A stretch of DNA of 64,000 bases from Escherichia coli (GTDB lineage: Bacteria; Pseudomonadota; Gammaproteobacteria; Enterobacterales; Enterobacteriaceae), in assembly GCF_013315695.1 (NCBI RefSeq), contig NZ_CP054353.1. One strand, given 5' to 3'. The translations under genes were made by a program, and so were the position numbers. Below the pieces are notes generated by a model that saw only the letters and a program-made list of their open reading frames with translations, was not told the DNA's origin and ran no database searches. Below, one piece after another: positions 1-56,078 of the stretch (within the stretch, counting starts at the first letter, position 1; the number at the start of each line of letters is the position of its first letter).

Positions 1-122
1 TGTTCAGGAAATGTTTGAAGAGACTGATATGTAGCTGTTTTCAGATTAAACGCCTTGAACCGTCACACTGATTAAGTACAATCCGGCGTGGTTGCGGCTT
101 CCAGATTATAAGAATGATTCCC

Positions 123-548
123 TTACTCACTTTTCAGCGCATTCACTTCTTCTCGTAATTCACTGAGTTCGTTCATTAGTACCAGAATCGCTTCATGATG
201 CAACGCTGCCGCAACGCCGTAAGTATCTGGAGAGAGTACTCCTTCCACCATAGTTCCATCAGGAAGTTGACGATCACCTCCCTCAGTTACTGCCTGGGGG
301 AAGATTTTCTTAACATCCTGCGCGATAAACCCAATCCCCCATTGTCCGGTATCTTTTCGCGTCCAGGAACAACCTTTTAGCATTTCCATCTTACTGAGCG
401 GGTCTCCAATTCTGGACACTCCATCTTTCAGGCGGCCATCTGAATTCGGAACCCATGCTCCAGGCGCTACAGCGTTACCAGTTGATTTCATAAAGCTCCA
501 TGTGGTTCCTGAGCTTGCGTTTGCTACCTGAATATTCCCTGATAAAGA
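123..548 (-). pseudogene. 3' fragment of a phage tail-fibre/tailspike gene (C-terminal intramolecular chaperone domain); 5' part replaced by IS
   Basis: ORF 123..599(-) translation carries NSDGRLKDGV...GIGFIAQDVKKIFPQAV...LMNELSELREEVNALK, matching the conserved C-terminal auto-processing chaperone domain of tail fibres. The first ~17 codons of the listed ORF lie inside the IS inverted repeat, so the true 5' end is missing. Confidence 0.55.
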
Positions 549-3406: not shown

Positions 3407-3729
3407 AGAACATTTAGATATTGTAGATCGCAAACAATAACGAGTTACGCTGTTTGTTTAGAATGCACTTCCTGATGCTGTGGATACGCATATTTCGGCG
3501 CGACTGCCCCTCAAGCCAACGCGATTTACGTCGGCTAGCCTGACGCTGCATGCGCCAGCGCCCCACTTCCGTTCTACTCCGCTTCATGTTAACTACTCTA
3601 TGCAATAACAGAATGGTCATTATACCCCCGCCCCCGACGCTGACCAGTGCTTTTCCCGCGTTTTTATTTGCCAGATGAATCCATATGCGTAAACTCATAA
3701 CAATGCGCTTTCAAAAGGATTTCTAATCT

Positions 3730-5554
<1,825 letters not shown>

Positions 5555-5577
5555 ATAATCGCTTTTGGAGTGAAAAA

Positions 5578-5597
5578 GGGCTGACAACTGTCAGCCC
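5578..5597. terminator. bidirectional intrinsic terminator between yciU and oppF
   Basis: Hairpin GGGCTGACA-ac-TGTCAGCCC flanked by an A-run upstream and T-rich sequence downstream, between convergent genes. Confidence 0.5.
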
Positions 5598-5606
5598 TTA
5601 TTGTGT

Positions 5607-6611
5607 TTAAAGCGGATCGACTTTCAGGCAAGAAACGGCGTGTCTGAAACTCCCCTCCAGCACAGGACGTGTTTTGGCACACTCCGGACCGGCAATCGGA
5701 CAACGGGTACGGAAAACACAACCGGAAGGCGGGTTGATCGGCGACGGTAATTCCCCTTCCAGTAACTGGATGGTTTTGTTCTTCTCCAGATCCGGATCAG
5801 GTATGGGGACTGCCGACATCAATGCCCTGGTGTAAGGATGTAGTGGATTGTGGTAGACCTCATCATAGGTCCCCAGTTCTACCGCATGGCCGAGATACAT
5901 CACTAACACACGATCGGAAATGTGTTTTACCACGGCCAGGTCGTGAGCGATAAAAATTAATGACAATCCCATCTCACGTTGTAACTGCTGGAGCAGGTTG
6001 ACCACCTGCGCCTGAATTGACACATCCAGCGCCGACACCGGCTCATCACAGATAATCAGCTTCGGTTCAAGAATAAGTGCACGTGCAATCCCGATACGCT
6101 GGCACTGCCCACCAGAGAACTCATGCGGATAGCGGTTAATCAGGTTAGGCAATAACCCGACTTTCAGCATCATCGCCTTCACGCGCTCGCGAACTTCCTG
6201 GCGTGACATTTTCGGATGATAAGTACGCAGTGGTTCAGCGATGATCTCGCCGATGGTCATACGCGGGTTCAGCGATGCCAACGGATCCTGGAAAATCATC
6301 TGAATATCACTGCGAACGGCACGCCATTCATCGGGCTTCATGCCCAGCAACTCTTTACCTAACCAGGCAACATGACCGTCGGTCGCCTTGACCAAACCGA
6401 TGATGGCGCGAGCAAAGGTGGACTTACCGCATCCCGATTCCCCTACCACACCTAATGTTTCCCCTTCATACAGGCGAAGAGTTACACCATCGACGGCTTT
6501 GAGCGTTTTCGGCGGTTGCCAGAACCACTGTTTGCCATCTTTGATTTCAAAGTGCACTTTCAGATCGGCGATTTCGAGGAGGACTTTTCTTCCTTCGGTT
6601 ACAGCATTCAT
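5607..6611 (-). CDS. oppF: oligopeptide ABC transporter ATP-binding protein OppF
   Basis: 334 aa; Walker A GESGCGKST, ABC signature LSGGQ; overlaps oppD by 4 nt. Confidence 0.93.
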   Translation of the reverse strand: MNAVTEGRKVLLEIADLKVHFEIKDGKQWFWQPPKTLKAVDGVTLRLYEGETLGVVGESGCGKSTFARAIIGLVKATDGHVAWLGKELLGMKPDEWRAVRSDIQMIFQDPLASLNPRMTIGEIIAEPLRTYHPKMSRQEVRERVKAMMLKVGLLPNLINRYPHEFSGGQCQRIGIARALILEPKLIICDEPVSALDVSIQAQVVNLLQQLQREMGLSLIFIAHDLAVVKHISDRVLVMYLGHAVELGTYDEVYHNPLHPYTRALMSAVPIPDPDLEKNKTIQLLEGELPSPINPPSGCVFRTRCPIAGPECAKTRPVLEGSFRHAVSCLKVDPL

Positions 6612-7621
6612 AACAGTTCCTCCACCGGTTTAAAGCAAGCACGCAGACGGCCAGGCGTAAACTCTTCCAGCGGCGGTGCGCTACTACAAATTTCCATCGC
6701 ATGCGGACAACGTGGCTGGAACGGGCAACCTTTCGGTAATCGCAGCAGGTTTGGCGGATTACCCGGAATAGTCAACATTGTTTCACCTTCCGCATCGAGA
6801 CGCGGCACCGCGTTGAGCAAACCGATAGAATAAGGATGAACGGGTTGATAAAAGACATCGCGCGCGTTGCCATATTCCATCGTGCGCCCGGCGTACATTA
6901 CCAGCACTTTGTCGCAGATCCCCGCCACCACGCCAAGATCGTGGGTGATCATAATGATGGCGGTATTAAATTCCCGCTTCAGTTCATTCAATAGCGTCAT
7001 GATCTGCGCCTGTACGGTGACGTCCAGCGCAGTAGTGGGTTCATCCGCAATCAGCAGCTTAGGTCGACATAGCAACGCCATCGCAATCATGACTCGCTGA
7101 CGCATGCCGCCAGAAAATTCGTGCGGGTACATTTTCATGCGTTTACGCGCTTCCGGCATTTTTACCGCATCGAGCATCCGCACCGACTCTTCAAACGCCT
7201 CAGCTTTGCTCATGTTCTTATGCAGCATCAGCACTTCCATCAACTGCTCACCGACGCGCATATAGGGATTCAACGAAGTCATTGGGTCCTGAAAAATCAT
7301 TGAGATTTGTTCAGCTCGCAGTTTATTGAGTTCACGCTCTGGCAAATTGAGGATTTCACGCCCATTGAAGGTTGCCGATCCGCCAATACGTCCGTTGGCA
7401 GCCAACAGGCCCATCAACGCAAATGCGGTTTGCGATTTGCCCGAACCAGACTCACCTACGATGCCCAGCGTTTCTCCGGCACGTAGGGAAAAATTCAGAT
7501 CATTGACCGCCGTGACGTCGCCGTCCGGGGTATTAAAGGTGACACGCAAATCTTTCACGTTCAGCAGTGCGTCAGCCTGTTGTTGTGCGAGCGGCACAGT
7601 TGCAGTTTCAATTACGCTCAT
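6608..7621 (-). CDS. oppD: oligopeptide ABC transporter ATP-binding protein OppD
   Basis: 337 aa; Walker A GESGSGKSQ, FSGGMRQR signature. Confidence 0.93.
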   Translation of the reverse strand: MSVIETATVPLAQQQADALLNVKDLRVTFNTPDGDVTAVNDLNFSLRAGETLGIVGESGSGKSQTAFALMGLLAANGRIGGSATFNGREILNLPERELNKLRAEQISMIFQDPMTSLNPYMRVGEQLMEVLMLHKNMSKAEAFEESVRMLDAVKMPEARKRMKMYPHEFSGGMRQRVMIAMALLCRPKLLIADEPTTALDVTVQAQIMTLLNELKREFNTAIIMITHDLGVVAGICDKVLVMYAGRTMEYGNARDVFYQPVHPYSIGLLNAVPRLDAEGETMLTIPGNPPNLLRLPKGCPFQPRCPHAMEICSSAPPLEEFTPGRLRACFKPVEELL

Positions 7622-25766: not shown

Positions 25767-27301
25767 GGGTGCGGCTCCGTTTTGCTGGTTACGTCGATGG
25801 CATCGATACGGCGGCTGTTGAACAGATTGAATTTGGTATCTGAACCGTGGCAGCCATCACCAAAGGTAAAGCCGCAGCCATTTTTCTCCGGGAAGGCTTC
25901 CCGCGCCAGTTCACGATGACTACTCGGCACCACAAAGCGATCTTCGTAGTTAGCAATCGCCAGATAACGGTACATCTCCTGTGCCTGGGCTTCGGTCAGA
26001 CCGACCTCTTCCAGCGCACGGGTATCCACTTTCCCGTCAACGGTTTCAGCACGTTTATAATGACGCATCGCCAGCATACGTTTCAGCGCGCGCAGTACCG
26101 GTTTGGTATCACCGGCGGTCAGCAGATTCGCCAGATACTGTACCGGAATACGCAGGCTTTCGACGTCTGGCAGAATGCCGTTGCTGCCCAGCTCACCCGC
26201 ATCTGCTGCAGACTGAATCGGAGACAGAGGCGGCACGTACCAGACCATCGGCAGTGTGCGATATTCCGGATGCAGCGGCAGCGCCAGTTTCCATTCCATC
26301 GCCATTTTATAAACCGGCGACTGCTGTGCGGCTTCAATAACGCTCAGCGGAATACCGTCTTTAATCGCCTGCTCGATGACTTTCGGATCGTTCGGATCGA
26401 GGAACACGTCCAGCTGACGCTGGTAAAGATCTTTCTCGTTCTCAGTGCTGGCTGCACGTTCAATAGCGTCGGCATCGTACAACAGCACGCCGAGATAACG
26501 GATACGACCGACACAGGTTTCTGAGCACACGGTCGGCTGACCCGCTTCAATACGCGGATAGCAGAAGATGCACTTCTCAGACTTACCGCTCTTCCAGTTG
26601 AAATAGATTTTTTTGTACGGGCATCCGGTGATGCACATACGCCAGCCACGGCATTTATCCTGGTCGATCAGAACGATGCCATCTTCTTCACGCTTGTAAA
26701 TCGCACCGCTCGGGCAGGTCGCCACACATGCCGGGTTCAGGCAGTGTTCGCACAGGCGCGGCAAATACATCATGAAGGTGTTTTCGAACTGGCTATACAT
26801 CGCCTTCTGGATGTTGTCGAAGTTCTTGTCTTTCGCCAGCTTGTCGAACTCACCGCCCAGGTCATCTTCCCAGTTCGGCCCTTTTTCGATTTTCGCCATC
26901 CGTTCGCCGGTAATCAGCGAACGCGGACGGGCAATCGGCTGCGACTTGCTGCCTTCCGGCGCGGTATGCAGGTTCTGATAGTCAAAATCGAACGGCTCGT
27001 AATAATCGTCGATCCCCGGCAGATGCGGGTTAGCGAAGATTTTACCCAGCAGCATGGCGCGGTTACCCATGCGCGGCTGCAGTTTGCCGTTGATTTTACG
27101 GATCCAGCCGCCTTTGTATTTTTCCTGGTTTTCCCAGTCAGTCGGGAAGCCCTGGCCCGGCTTGGTTTCCACGTTGTTGAACCACGCGTATTCCACGCCT
27201 TCGCGGCTGGTCCAGACGTTTTTACAGGTAACTGAACAGGTGTGGCAGCCGATGCACTTATCGAGATTCAGCACCATGCCGACTTGTGAACGAATTTTCA
27301 T
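25763..27301 (-). CDS. narH: respiratory nitrate reductase A beta subunit
   Basis: 512 aa; multiple Cys clusters (CxxCxxCxxxCP) for Fe-S centres. Confidence 0.95.
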   Translation of the reverse strand: MKIRSQVGMVLNLDKCIGCHTCSVTCKNVWTSREGVEYAWFNNVETKPGQGFPTDWENQEKYKGGWIRKINGKLQPRMGNRAMLLGKIFANPHLPGIDDYYEPFDFDYQNLHTAPEGSKSQPIARPRSLITGERMAKIEKGPNWEDDLGGEFDKLAKDKNFDNIQKAMYSQFENTFMMYLPRLCEHCLNPACVATCPSGAIYKREEDGIVLIDQDKCRGWRMCITGCPYKKIYFNWKSGKSEKCIFCYPRIEAGQPTVCSETCVGRIRYLGVLLYDADAIERAASTENEKDLYQRQLDVFLDPNDPKVIEQAIKDGIPLSVIEAAQQSPVYKMAMEWKLALPLHPEYRTLPMVWYVPPLSPIQSAADAGELGSNGILPDVESLRIPVQYLANLLTAGDTKPVLRALKRMLAMRHYKRAETVDGKVDTRALEEVGLTEAQAQEMYRYLAIANYEDRFVVPSSHRELAREAFPEKNGCGFTFGDGCHGSDTKFNLFNSRRIDAIDVTSKTEPHP

Positions 27302-52435: not shown

Positions 52436-53527
52436 ATGGGATTCAAATGCGGTATCGTCGGTTTGCCCAACGTCGGGAAATCTACCCTGTTCAACGCGCT
52501 GACCAAAGCCGGTATTGAAGCGGCCAACTTTCCATTCTGTACCATTGAGCCGAACACAGGCGTCGTACCAATGCCTGACCCTCGCCTGGATCAACTGGCT
52601 GAAATCGTAAAACCGCAGCGTACGCTTCCCACGACCATGGAATTTGTCGATATCGCCGGTCTGGTAAAAGGCGCATCGAAAGGCGAAGGTCTGGGTAACC
52701 AGTTCCTGACCAACATCCGTGAAACCGAAGCGATCGGTCACGTTGTTCGCTGCTTTGAAAATGACAACATCATTCACGTTTCCGGCAAAGTTAACCCGGC
52801 GGATGATATTGAAGTTATCAACACCGAACTGGCGCTGGCGGATCTCGACACCTGTGAACGTGCGATTCATCGCGTACAGAAGAAAGCCAAAGGTGGCGAT
52901 AAAGACGCGAAAGCTGAGCTGGCGGTCCTGGAAAAATGCCTGCCCCAGCTGGAAAACGCAGGTATGCTGCGCGCGCTGGATTTAAGCGCTGAAGAGAAAG
53001 CGGCTATTCGTTACCTGAGCTTCCTGACGCTGAAACCAACAATGTACATCGCCAACGTCAACGAAGACGGTTTTGAAAACAACCCGTATCTTGACCAGGT
53101 GCGTGAAATCGCGGCGAAAGAAGGTTCTGTTGTGGTTCCGGTTTGTGCTGCTGTTGAAGCAGACATTGCCGAACTGGACGACGAAGAACGTGACGAGTTT
53201 ATGCAGGAGCTTGGGCTGGAAGAGCCGGGCCTGAACCGTGTGATCCGTGCCGGTTATAAGCTGCTGAACCTGCAAACTTACTTCACCGCTGGGGTGAAAG
53301 AAGTACGTGCATGGACCATTCCGGTTGGTGCAACCGCGCCGCAGGCCGCTGGCAAAATCCATACTGATTTTGAAAAAGGCTTTATCCGTGCACAAACCAT
53401 CTCGTTTGAAGATTTCATCACTTACAAAGGTGAACAAGGCGCGAAAGAAGCAGGCAAAATGCGTGCAGAAGGCAAAGATTACATCGTTAAAGATGGCGAT
53501 GTAATGAACTTCCTGTTCAACGTCTAA
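52436..53527 (+). CDS. ychF: ribosome-binding ATPase YchF (Obg-family GTPase)
   Basis: 363 aa; G1 motif [16 protein letters not shown]-terminal TGS domain. Confidence 0.94.
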
Positions 53528-53718
53528 TTCCGCTAATACTACTCTGGCGGTTAATAACGAGCCATTATGTGAGTTGCACGTAATGGCTTTTTTACGCCTG
53601 CTACGCGTCTTCTTTCAATTCTGAGTTACCAAAACTCATAATCAGACTCCTGACAATATTAACAATGCAGCTTTTATGTGATAACAATCACAGTGCATTA
53701 ACCGTTCAAGAGTTTGTC

Positions 53719-53895
53719 ATGAAAAAAACATTTACCTTCAGCCTGTTAGCAATTGTCTTTGCAAGCCTGTTGAGTGCTTGTGTTCCCCACCATCATCACC
53801 GCCACAGCGATGGCCCTCGTGGTCCTGCGCCCTCCGGTAAGCCAATGCCACCTTCAAATGGTGGACCAAATCACGGCAGTCATGGTCGCTATTAA
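53719..53895 (+). CDS. hypothetical small lipoprotein, His/Pro/Gly-rich (58 aa)
   Basis: ORF 53665..53895; ATG at 53719 preceded by AAGAG at -8; MKKTFTFSLLAIVFASLLSAC signal peptide with lipobox LSAC; mature part CVPHHHHRHSDGPRGPAPSGKPMPPSNGGPNHGSHGRY. Product not recognised. Confidence 0.5.
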   Translation: MKKTFTFSLLAIVFASLLSACVPHHHHRHSDGPRGPAPSGKPMPPSNGGPNHGSHGRY

Positions 53896-53931
53896 TTAGC
53901 AATTCATAGCGGGAAAGTACATACTCTCCCG

Positions 53932-55851
53932 CTATCCACGGCGCTTAAACTGCCCTGCATCAATGCCATGTTGCTTCATTTTCCGCCACAGCGTAGTGCG
54001 GCCGATTCCAAGTAAAGCCGACATTTCCTGAATGCGACCGCCTGTGACCTGGGCTGCGTTAATAATTGCCTCTTTTTCAACTTCCGCAAATGACAGACTG
54101 GTGGAAAGACGGGTGGCGCTGACATCATCTGTCGCCTGCTCGGTAAACAGATGTTCAGGTAAATCACTGACGCGAATGCGCCCGTTATCACTACTCAGAG
54201 CAAGATTCTCGATGACGCTGTAAAGTTCAAAATCGTTGCCTGGCCATGCACAAGAAACCAGGCGAGCGAGGGCATCGTCATCAATTTTCAGCCGCGTAGA
54301 GAAGCGTTTTTCAAGGCTGCGTAATTTGTTATTCACCAGCGCCGGAATGCTGCCACGCCGCATACGCAGTGGCGGGATGGTAATTTCAAATGCATGCAGC
54401 GCGTAATACAGCTGGCGACTAAAACGATTTTGTTCCACCAGCATTGCCAGGTCCGCGGTCGTTGTGGCAATCACTTTGACATCAATGGGTATTAAACGCC
54501 GCGCATCCAGTCGCGTGATAACCCCCTGCTTGATAACCTGAAGCAAAGCAGACTGTAACTCCACCGCCAGATATTCAATCTTTTCAAGAAACAGCGTGCC
54601 GCCGTGCGCCAGTTCCAGCCGACTCAGACGACCATTTTCATTGTCCGTGCGATCGCCGCCAATAAATTCTTCCGCCAGCGCCGCATCACCATATAACTCA
54701 CAATTGACGGCGATATAAGGCCCCGCTGCACGCTCACTTTCATTATGAATTGCCTGACTTAGCAGTGCCTTGCCCACGCCCTCTTCTCCACAAAGCAGGA
54801 CAGGAAGGCTACTGCGCGCCGCCTGGCGACCAAAATGAATCAAGCGGCGGGTTTGCGGATCGTCCTGTGGCATATGAGCGAAAGTATGGCTGACTTTTCC
54901 TAATTGACTGGTCATTAACTGCCGCATCTGTTCCACAGGATGGAGCAACAAAATAAAGCTGGTTCCCTGCGTTTCTATTATCGGTTTAAGGGTTATCACC
55001 GCATCAATAAACTGGTGCTGACTTTCAAAGGTTGCTTCTACGTGTTTGAGCGGATGTGCCTGTTTTATTGCTTGTTGCAATACGGCGGGTAACGTTAAGA
55101 GTTCAGTGATCGCCCTTCCCTGACTTGCCGTCGCGTCAAGGCGCAAGACCCGCGCCGCCTGGGCATTGATAAATTGCAAATTACCCTGCTCGTCCCAGCT
55201 AATCACACCATCATCCATACTTTCTAACAGGGCATTAAGTTGATTTAAATGACGGTTAGTTTCAGCGAGCAAACTGTCCGTCAGCAGTAAATTTCCGACC
55301 TCGCGTGCGATTGCCAACGTCAACGGCAAATCAGCTGCGGTAGTTTGCTCAACCGGACACGCCAGCGCTATTGTTCCCGTCAATCGGCCCTTGCTGTCAA
55401 ACAACGGCGTTGCACAAAAGGCCCAGTTCCAGAGTGCCTGTTTGAAATGTTGATCGGCCATCGTTTTCACGGCCTGACCAGAGATAGCCGCTAATGATAG
55501 CGCACAAGTACCAATAATTCCCTCGGCGCAATACGTGCCGTCATTGAATCCCAGTGCACTTAGCTGCTGCAAGGTTTGCGGATCGCCATTACGGCTGAGA
55601 ATGCAGGCGGTTTCATCGAGGATAAGCAACGCACACTCTCGCGGTGCCATATATTCCCAGGCATCTTCCAGCGCAGCCTGCCCGAGCGTCAGCATCGCTT
55701 TCTTACGCCGATAAATAGAAGCAAATGTCACGCCCTGGGCCTGGTGTGGTACGTTCCATGTCTCCCGTTTCATCAGCTTAATGCATCGCTCCCAGGAGGT
55801 TGCAATTAAGGGAGATATGTCCCGACCATCGTTGTTAAAAGCGCCACTCAT
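53932..55851 (-). CDS. dhaR: dihydroxyacetone kinase operon activator DhaR (sigma54-type EBP-like AAA+ regulator)
   Basis: ORF 53932..55860; start at MSGAFNNDGR gives 639 aa; GAF/PAS N-terminal region, AAA+ core, C-terminal Fis-type HTH. Confidence 0.92.
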   Translation of the reverse strand: MSGAFNNDGRDISPLIATSWERCIKLMKRETWNVPHQAQGVTFASIYRRKKAMLTLGQAALEDAWEYMAPRECALLILDETACILSRNGDPQTLQQLSALGFNDGTYCAEGIIGTCALSLAAISGQAVKTMADQHFKQALWNWAFCATPLFDSKGRLTGTIALACPVEQTTAADLPLTLAIAREVGNLLLTDSLLAETNRHLNQLNALLESMDDGVISWDEQGNLQFINAQAARVLRLDATASQGRAITELLTLPAVLQQAIKQAHPLKHVEATFESQHQFIDAVITLKPIIETQGTSFILLLHPVEQMRQLMTSQLGKVSHTFAHMPQDDPQTRRLIHFGRQAARSSLPVLLCGEEGVGKALLSQAIHNESERAAGPYIAVNCELYGDAALAEEFIGGDRTDNENGRLSRLELAHGGTLFLEKIEYLAVELQSALLQVIKQGVITRLDARRLIPIDVKVIATTTADLAMLVEQNRFSRQLYYALHAFEITIPPLRMRRGSIPALVNNKLRSLEKRFSTRLKIDDDALARLVSCAWPGNDFELYSVIENLALSSDNGRIRVSDLPEHLFTEQATDDVSATRLSTSLSFAEVEKEAIINAAQVTGGRIQEMSALLGIGRTTLWRKMKQHGIDAGQFKRRG

Positions 55852-56078
55852 ATCCCGCATCCCTTATGACAAAAGGTGTTCCGGCTCGCAATTTTAAGTA
55901 TTAATACACGTAAAAGTTTCAATATGGAACATTCATTAAAGAATATGTTTCACTATGAAACATAATTTGGGCTAATTTTCTTTTCCCTTGCCTGATGCAC
56001 AATGGATTCATCGGCAGTCAGTGGTCGCCGTGTCGTTGAACATCATCCATGCCCTACCGTAATTGCTGGAGCAAAATA

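Follow-up and report, generated by a model that had tools for sequence, protein, structure and literature searches.

A conserved small gene between ychF and dhaR of Escherichia, predicted to encode a histidine-rich and possibly metal-binding lipoprotein

Comparison across the genus Escherichia indicates that positions 53719-53895 of the window, the 64,000-nucleotide stretch of Escherichia coli DNA analysed here, are a genuine and selectively maintained gene. This small gene, whose product RefSeq already has on record as a hypothetical protein, would encode an uncharacterised member of the small bacterial lipoproteins. For its lipoprotein product we tentatively propose, at slightly less than an even chance, the binding of divalent transition metals in the outer-membrane-facing periplasm.

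The small gene and its annotation

E. coli IAI39, CE10 and numerous further strains match the window with 100% identity across the ychF-dhaR region. An earlier, sequence-only reading had described a gap of about 400 bp between these two genes; with the ychF stop at 53527 and the stop of dhaR, on the minus strand, at 53932-53934, the gap measures 404 bp. That reading had also reported a 58-aa ORF with a lipoprotein signal peptide. Such an ORF is indeed present, with LSAC/Cys21 as its lipobox and WP_001311636.1 as its RefSeq accession, but the coordinates assigned to it, 53665-53931, have to be replaced by those of the actual coding sequence (Table 1).

The ORF is the single notable one in the gap, and its longest version covers 53665-53895 (76 aa). 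The upstream ATG at 53665 is absent in E. marmotae, which has ATATGG there, so the 58-aa form is the conserved one. We rejected the 76-aa reading, in which the extension moreover puts acidic residues ahead of the signal peptide. It is the reading from ATG 53719 that RefSeq annotates in IAI39, as the hypothetical protein WP_001311636.1, and the 58-aa product has the sequence MKKTFTFSLLAIVFASLLSACVPHHHHRHSDGPRGPAPSGKPMPPSNGGPNHGSHGRY. Annotation of identical DNA in RefSeq is inconsistent, with "hypothetical protein" in most genomes and nothing in others, and two further frames across the small ORF are also open. The ribosome-binding site that had seemed plausible is an AAGAG 6 nt before the ATG; positions 53696-53721, from the AAGAG through the ATG, are invariant in all seven sequences compared. 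Literature searches on the accession, on ycgV, ychF and dhaR, on Escherichia histidine-rich lipoproteins, on Ribo-seq of Nissle and on genomic islands at ychF returned nothing on the small ORF.

Table 1 Features of the ychF-dhaR region, in window coordinates.
Feature	Position	Strand	Remarks
Att-like core, TTCAACGTCTAA	53516-53527	+	Last 12 nt of ychF; present at both island junctions in ST131 (L013)
Alternative segment	53530-53938		409 bp, versus the 3740-bp K-12 ycgV segment; homology to K-12 breaks
ychF intrinsic terminator	53559-53593	+	13-bp stem, then T6; -18.3 kcal/mol, z = -5.3
Candidate sigma-70 promoter P1, TTCAAT-17-CATAAT	53614-53642	+	Found by eye; -35 weak
Candidate promoter P2, TTAACA-18-AACAAT	53659-53688	+	Found by consensus scan; hexamers invariant
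CRP-core palindrome TGTGA-N6-TCACA, TGTGATAACAATCACA	53677-53692		Perfect 10/10; putative site
Shine-Dalgarno-like AAGAG	53708-53712	+	6 nt before ATG 53719; invariant
Small-gene coding sequence	53719-53895, including stop	+	58-aa prolipoprotein; RefSeq WP_001311636.1; purifying selection; orthologues
His-cluster codons H24-H25-H26-H27-R28-H29	53788-53805	+	Residues +4 to +9 of the mature lipopeptide
Inverted-repeat hairpin	53906-53935		-18.8 kcal/mol (+), -23.7 kcal/mol (-); z about -5 on both strands

Purifying selection on the coding frame

We compared seven orthologous sequences, including the allele of E. coli SCU-116, Escherichia sp. E1V33, E. whittamii and three E. marmotae contigs. The SCU-116 sequence is a divergent E. 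coli allele, 93% identical to the window. Among E. coli alleles and Escherichia species, pairwise dN/dS was 0.025-0.14, with dS of 0.17-0.42, for all pairs but one; the exception, SCU-116 against E1V33, gave a dN/dS of 0.44 from just 5 differences. For comparison, dN/dS was 0.05-0.06 for the neighbouring dhaR and 0.01-0.02 for ychF. The selection statistics are based on only about 20 variable sites, distributed 2/4/14 over codon positions 1, 2 and 3 (third-position excess, binomial p = 9e-4). Fisher tests of synonymous versus non-synonymous changes against the window gave p = 7e-8 for E. whittamii, 1e-6 for E. marmotae and 4e-4 for SCU-116.

Divergence was 2-3% at codon positions 1 and 2 and 14-19% at position 3, with 5-18% in the flanking non-coding DNA. 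All of the length variants are in frame: an additional Pro-Gly in E. marmotae and E. whittamii, the absence of His-Arg, and an 8-residue duplication in the signal peptide. Neither the antisense ORF nor the other sense frame matches the periodicity of the variation. Frameshifted copies are rare singletons (P0006-P0012), and the main cluster is found on more than 1000 contigs. From this pattern of variation we conclude that purifying selection acts on the ORF, which is very probably translated. The sequence-only reading had looked to synonymous sites and synteny to establish whether the ORF is conserved, and both speak for it, with purifying selection in the frame of the ORF and synteny kept in other Escherichia.

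Distribution in and beyond Escherichia

The small-gene segment was present in 1296 of 5426 complete E. coli genomes, and at least 80% of the ycgV segment in 3931 of the 5426. Carriers of the small gene include B2 and F strains, among them ST131, Nissle 1917, IAI39 and CE10. Because about 72% of complete E. coli genomes, K-12 included, are without it, the small gene is dispensable. The order ychF-small gene-dhaR is kept in E. marmotae, E. whittamii and Escherichia sp. E1V33. When one genome per species was scanned for the peptide pattern (100,044 species), matches were found only in Escherichia sp. E1V33 and E. whittamii, in a scan that requires exact peptide words and may thus miss relatives; the 90% cluster of the small protein also includes E. 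marmotae sequences. A phmmer search against 1.84 billion cluster representatives recovered only the family's own clusters and a spurious tandem-repeat translation (P0027), and searches of Pfam, NCBIfam and PHROGs gave matches that were all below threshold and involved either just the signal peptide or families without a known function.

The ychF-dhaR gap of E. albertii is 160 bp long and holds no ORF, and it has a ychF terminator and a dhaR-proximal end of the window type. It aligns weakly to the leader, start codon and first codons of the small gene (score of 16 versus 9.7 +/- 1.6 in shuffles). Loss of the small gene from E. albertii by deletion, rather than an ancestor that had none, is suggested by these comparisons. 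In Citrobacter and in a Salmonella-labelled genome, dhaR lies at another locus and does not adjoin ychF. The range searches, together with this location of dhaR elsewhere, indicate that the small gene is a taxonomically restricted orphan of the genus Escherichia.

Replacement by ycgV and island integration at the 3' end of ychF

K-12 has ycgV between dhaR and ychF, as the sequence-only reading had stated. The presence or absence of ycgV had been viewed there as a simple indel; instead, the whole segment is replaced, ychF terminator and final two dhaR codons included. The window is homologous to K-12 up to 53529, two bases past the ychF stop, and again from 53939, in the last dhaR codons. Between these points, the window segment has the small gene flanked by the ychF terminator and the 3' hairpin, and it takes in the stop and final two codons of dhaR; its K-12 counterpart consists of a 768-bp leader and ycgV. 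DhaR ends in ...KRRG in the window and ...KRRV in K-12, and the ychF terminator differs too.

Comparison of the two segments by blastn (word size 7) and Smith-Waterman alignment found only chance matches of 11-26 nt. In a blastp comparison of the small protein with YcgV, the best match covered 17 residues (E = 0.014 against that single sequence), and Pfam found no Pertactin or Autotransporter domain in the small protein. The segments share nothing detectable, so the difference is a replacement rather than a deletion, and the ORF does not derive from ycgV. Thus the earlier concern that the ORF might be left over from ycgV met with no similarity in either DNA or protein.

Strain comparison indicates that islands integrate at the 3' end of ychF. 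In ST131, an island of about 26 kb lies between ychF and an intact small gene and is flanked by a direct repeat of the att-like core. It carries a tyrosine integrase, ISEc24, a retron Ec67-type reverse transcriptase and an ABC-three-component system. Despite the 26 kb that separate them from ychF, the ST131 small gene and its 190-nt upstream region are 99.8% identical. Other E. coli have different integrase or primase islands at the ychF 3' end, and the ST131 island begins with ~90 nt that have homology to the sequence just downstream of ychF in K-12. Taken together, the shared att site, this ~90-nt homology and the other islands found there make the ycgV segment look like a degenerate island at the same att site, one that removed the resident small gene.

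Strain HH45 supports this view: between K-12-type ends, the mosaic that fills its gap combines three short ycgV fragments with a decayed 3' half of the small ORF (84% identical and frameshifted), which implies that ycgV and the small gene once stood side by side. At first HH45 looked like a link that would identify the ORF as a ycgV remnant, an identity that was rejected when the mosaic resolved into separate ycgV and ORF pieces. Since E. albertii shares both the ychF terminator and the dhaR-proximal end with the window, we take the window-type gap to be ancestral and the K-12 type to be foreign.

Transcription and regulatory elements

By its position behind the ychF terminator, which is kept in E. 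albertii and in all Escherichia haplotypes with the small gene, the small gene would be a separate transcription unit. Its leader (53636-53718) is almost invariant across species. Of the two candidate promoters, P1 is absent from the output of the consensus scan; its -10 element, CATAAT, is invariant across species and its -35 element varies between TTCAAT and TCCAAT. P2 is the only promoter-like match in 53400-54100, where the number found equals the chance expectation, and its -10 element sits within the CRP-type palindrome.

This palindrome is the sole such site in the window (0.07 expected) and is invariant in all seven orthologous sequences. It lies 27 nt upstream of the ATG, with its centre 34.5 nt upstream, and would sit at about +35 relative to P1, inside the leader, or over the -10 element of P2. 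On neither strand does its distance from any convincing -10 element match a class I or class II arrangement. Because neither P1 nor P2 gives an activating geometry, CRP, if bound, would more likely repress.

Consensus scans of 53590-53730 for metal-regulator, envelope-stress, sigma-E and sigma-54 sites were almost all at chance level, the exceptions being matches to ZntR (13/22, shuffle p = 0.03) and to the CRP 22-mer (14/22, p = 0.05). None of the upstream candidates for Fur, Zur, NikR, CusR, CueR, ZntR, RcnR or MntR operators was judged to be above shuffled background, and with no metal-regulator operator above chance there is no regulatory link to metals. A search of 53450-54000 against Rfam found nothing near a gathering score; with scores that far below it, this interval contains no known sRNA or riboswitch. 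At the other end of the gene, the inverted-repeat hairpin overlaps the dhaR stop and lies between the convergent small gene and dhaR, with no T-run after it on the plus strand. It is retained, with sequence changes, in other species, and is probably the shared 3' end or terminator of both convergent transcripts.

Lipoprotein signal and mature peptide

The signal peptide comprises residues 1-20. As read from the sequence, an N-region of M-K-K is followed by 15 uncharged residues (T4-L18) as the h-region, and the lipobox is L18-S19-A20-C21, with the Cys21 codon at 53779-53781. LSAC/Cys21 agrees with the lipobox pattern [LVI][ASTVI][GAS]C with a Cys within residues 15-35, and the lipobox is invariant in all 11 natural variants aligned. 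The two lysines of the n-region, the uncharged h-region and LSAC also fit the PROSITE lipoprotein rule PS51257, and the automatic rule-based name of the E. marmotae orthologue in UniProt is "Lipoprotein".

The dominance of His, Pro and Gly noted earlier in the mature part amounts to 58% of its 38 residues (8 Pro, 7 His and 7 Gly). The mature peptide begins with CVPHHHHRH, so that the HHHHRH cluster is three residues from the lipid anchor; its tail is net-basic and ends in Tyr, and Cys21 is the sole Cys in the product. Positions +2 and +3 are Val and Pro, invariant among the aligned variants, with no Asp at +2. In E. coli, Asp at +2 is the signal for avoiding Lol, and lipoproteins are otherwise sorted to the outer membrane.

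Within the cluster, no variation is seen at H25, H26 and H29, and conservation at H24 and H27 is 90% or more; H52 and H55, near the C-terminus, are invariant or nearly so. The natural cluster variants QHHHRH, HHHHHH and HHH--H all keep at least four His, and every allele and species compared has 4-6 clustered His beside the anchor. The Pro-rich segment GPRGPA.SGKPMPPSNGGPNHGS is conserved equally to the His cluster. AlphaFold gives a single helix over residues 3-20, the signal peptide, with the remainder as coil at a pLDDT of 56-67, and the mature 38-residue peptide is predicted to be disordered. A sequence search of the PDB matched only the N-terminal His-tags of recombinant constructs. A His-rich composition by itself is no proof of a metal function.

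Proposed function and alternative explanations

We infer lipidation, sorting, metal binding and CRP control solely from sequence, read in the light of established E. coli lipoprotein biology. The 58-residue prolipoprotein would be exported by Sec; Lgt would then transfer a diacylglyceryl group to Cys21, signal peptidase II would cut after Ala20 and Lnt would N-acylate the new terminus. With Val rather than Asp at +2, the lipoprotein would be expected to be carried by the Lol system to the outer membrane and placed in its inner leaflet. Once mature, the product would form a disordered, Pro/Gly-rich periplasmic tail of 38 residues, with HHHHRH near the anchor and two conserved C-terminal His. 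There, at the outer-membrane face of the periplasm, the His cluster may reversibly bind Ni, Zn, Cu and Co, and so buffer, sequester or hand over metal. Metal chelation at the membrane surface appears to be the best-supported mechanism, since the His are invariant or nearly so and the variants keep at least four of them. Expression is perhaps tied to carbon status through the CRP-type site in the promoter or leader. The suggestion made in the sequence-only reading, "a metal-binding or low-complexity envelope peptide", is thus plausible.

A more specific form of the metal-binding proposal, which we consider rather unlikely, holds that the product is an orphan "His-tagged" lipopeptide serving as an outer-membrane-tethered Ni/Zn/Cu buffer or scavenger under cAMP-CRP, and that it was lost elsewhere via ycgV island replacement. 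The gene would then have been kept in extraintestinal and other non-K-12 lineages and in cryptic Escherichia clades, and most other E. coli would have lost it.

The absence of a metal operator and the equal conservation of the Pro-rich segment make a non-metal accessory role a serious rival, and we allow it a substantial minority chance. The gene would in that case encode a real, conserved outer-membrane lipoprotein, disordered and accessory or stress-related, whose His cluster is incidental; it could be the partner of an envelope machine, as LptM (YifL) is of the LPS translocon, or be stress-induced like OsmB and the entericidins. All of the evidence for a real lipoprotein gene is shared by this explanation. 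The size, Pro/Gly-rich disordered tail and C-terminal Tyr of the product resemble those of LptM, to which there is also a weak NCBIfam match confined to the signal peptide (E = 0.045), and the lack of an upstream metal-regulator box and the conservation of GPRGPA.SGKPMPPSNGGPNHGS alongside the His cluster fit it as well. However, the LptM match reaches only 13.9 bits versus a cutoff of 27.7 and ends at the cleavage site, no partner gene is linked, and 4-6 clustered His kept in every allele and species are hard to call incidental.

Two further explanations would remove the gene altogether. That the ORF is an untranslated chance frame, its conservation due to promoter, CRP-site or terminator elements or to recent common ancestry, is in our view very improbable. 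The three-base periodicity of 2/4/14 falls exactly in the frame of the small gene, whereas the third positions of the antisense ORF fall on small-gene second positions; the indels preserve the frame, and codon positions 1 and 2 are less diverged than the flanking non-coding DNA. Nor are the sequences merely young, because dS is 0.2-0.4 with a dN of 0.01-0.02. What speaks for a chance ORF is that it is short, of low complexity and without known homologues, that RefSeq annotates identical DNA inconsistently, and that two other frames are open. Scarcely credible is the idea of a leftover from a larger gene or mobile element, either an off-frame ycgV fragment or a stranded Rz1-like phage spanin. 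It is prompted by the status of the locus as an island hotspot, by HH45, where ycgV fragments are joined to the 3' half of the ORF, by weak PHROG matches to two families of unknown function (phrog_542, E = 0.0024; phrog_1717, E = 0.0077), and by a size and Pro content that resemble lambda Rz1. But the 409-bp segment is without resemblance to the ycgV segment by blastn, Smith-Waterman or blastp, and the ORF and ycgV parts of HH45 are distinct pieces. Moreover, in four Escherichia species the gene occupies one and the same chromosomal position, where neither phage nor island genes adjoin it, there is no adjacent or embedding i-spanin gene, and the product has no periplasmic Cys for a spanin disulfide. 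Among these readings, metal binding by a real lipoprotein is the one that we prefer.

Implications and comparison with known systems

Small proteins missing from K-12 are largely unstudied. Roughly one in four complete E. coli genomes encodes this one, those of major clinical and probiotic lineages (ST131, Nissle 1917) among them, and the constraint on its gene matches that on the regulatory neighbour dhaR. If the His cluster binds metal, the product would be a minimal lipid-anchored periplasmic metal-binding peptide, with a possible bearing on nutritional immunity and on nickel, zinc and copper handling in extraintestinal strains. Should the cAMP-CRP-controlled buffer or scavenger prove real, it would be a lineage-specific envelope metal-homeostasis factor that could not be discovered through work on K-12. 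The locus also illustrates clearly how islands integrate at the 3' end of a housekeeping gene, here ychF, and a degenerate ycgV island that erased a resident core gene would explain a polymorphism otherwise misreadable as a simple ycgV deletion.

Among known lipoproteins, LptM (YifL, NCBIfam NF047847) is similar in being an enterobacterial prolipoprotein of ~60 residues whose mature part is disordered, rich in Pro and Gly, and has Tyr as its last residue. It is the best NCBIfam match of the small protein (E = 0.045, 13.9 bits versus a cutoff of 27.7), over residues 1-21 only, and since this match reaches no further than the cleavage site, the small lipoprotein lacks the mature LptM motif. The mature product of the small gene begins instead with CVPHHHHRH, and LptM is core in K-12, where the small gene is absent.

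Hrl (MG_149) of Mycoplasma genitalium is a Fur-regulated histidine-rich lipoprotein that metal starvation induces and that is implicated in the acquisition of nickel (PMC6968530). It offers a functional precedent for the proposed metal binding. Both proteins are lipid-anchored, His-rich and proposed to bind metal, an analogy of composition only: no sequence relationship was detected between the two (Hrl is absent from the matches among 1.84 billion representatives), the host of Hrl is a wall-less, single-membrane Mollicute, and the small gene is without a Fur-type operator upstream.

OsmB, the entericidins EcnA and EcnB, and Rz1 are likewise very small lipoproteins with low-complexity mature parts, Rz1 being Pro-rich and in the outer membrane. 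No sequence similarity to them was found, however, and the small gene is without a toxin-antitoxin partner, i-spanin gene or lysis cassette and has a conserved chromosomal position in several species.

Natural His-rich metal-binding segments are found in the N-terminus of ZinT and a loop of ZnuA, as appendages of folded domains. These segments, and engineered His-tags, resemble the small lipoprotein in their clustered His, which there chelate Zn, Ni or Co. In the small lipoprotein, by contrast, the cluster would account for practically all that is functional in a 38-residue lipopeptide.

Integration at the 3′ end of ychF

The 3′ terminus of ychF serves as a site of integration. In the ST131 strain 751 locus, the gene's final 12 nt (TTCAACGTCTAA) form a direct repeat on either side of an island of ~26 kb. 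This island contains a tyrosine integrase, ISEc24, DUF2339/DUF3999 genes, a retron Ec67-type reverse transcriptase and an ABC-three-component system. Other E. coli (loci L015 and L018) carry different islands at this position, with an integrase or a DUF5906 gene.

Immediately after ychF in K-12, where the ycgV segment starts, ~90 nt are homologous to the left end of the island in ST131. The two sequences are 90% identical over 80 nt, a match that includes a terminator-like hairpin (AATCCACGCAATTGCGTGGATTTTT). This homology suggests that the ycgV segment, the K-12 alternative to the segment bearing the small lipoprotein gene, is a degenerate island that has lost its integrase.

A mosaic haplotype was found in E. 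coli HH45 and in no other of the 5426 genomes searched. Its ends are of the K-12 type and it contains three ycgV fragments, all of them short, together with the 3′ half of the small ORF, which is frameshifted. A G-rich stretch of ~60 nt (GGTGGGGAGGGGGTTAGTGTGGGAGGGGGAGGAGGGAG) is also present in this haplotype.

Coordinates of features at the ychF-dhaR locus
Feature	Sequence	Position	Strand	Detail
Last 12 nt of ychF	window	53516-53527		
12-nt repeat, first copy	L013 (ST131 strain 751)	about 117-128		
12-nt repeat, second copy	L013 (ST131 strain 751)	about 26175-26186		
ST131 island left end	L013	129-220		
ycgV segment	L002 (K-12)	3480-7219		
HH45 haplotype	L004	2733-3271		
CRP core palindrome	window	53677-53692		
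dhaR, mechanical ORF	window	53932-55860	-	642 aa, start MRDMSGAF
E. albertii DhaR sequence	L024	4001-5584		527 aa

The small gene and dhaR

RefSeq annotates the small gene unevenly, with no feature in 7 of 25 genomes whose DNA is 100% identical; plasmid-labelled records account for 4 of the 1297 matches in the E. coli genome search. Its leader or promoter contains a perfect CRP core palindrome (TGTGATAACAATCACA), the sole copy in the 64-kb window, which is unchanged across Escherichia species. The position of this palindrome matches no standard activating geometry.

For DhaR, the RefSeq call is 639 aa and begins with MSGAF, three residues shorter than the mechanical ORF. The final residue is G, V or R, tracking the haplotype of the adjoining segment, and the N-terminus differs unusually much between Escherichia species (MSGAFNNDGRD, MNDGFNNQQQS and MNGGFNNDSRG). 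The E. albertii DhaR sequence, named only “sigma 54-interacting transcriptional regulator”, is 527 aa, shorter than the 639-aa protein, and DhaR may be truncated or internally rearranged in this species. In E. albertii, 160 bp separate ychF from dhaR, and this gap has its own hairpin (TTACCCT...AGGGTAA).
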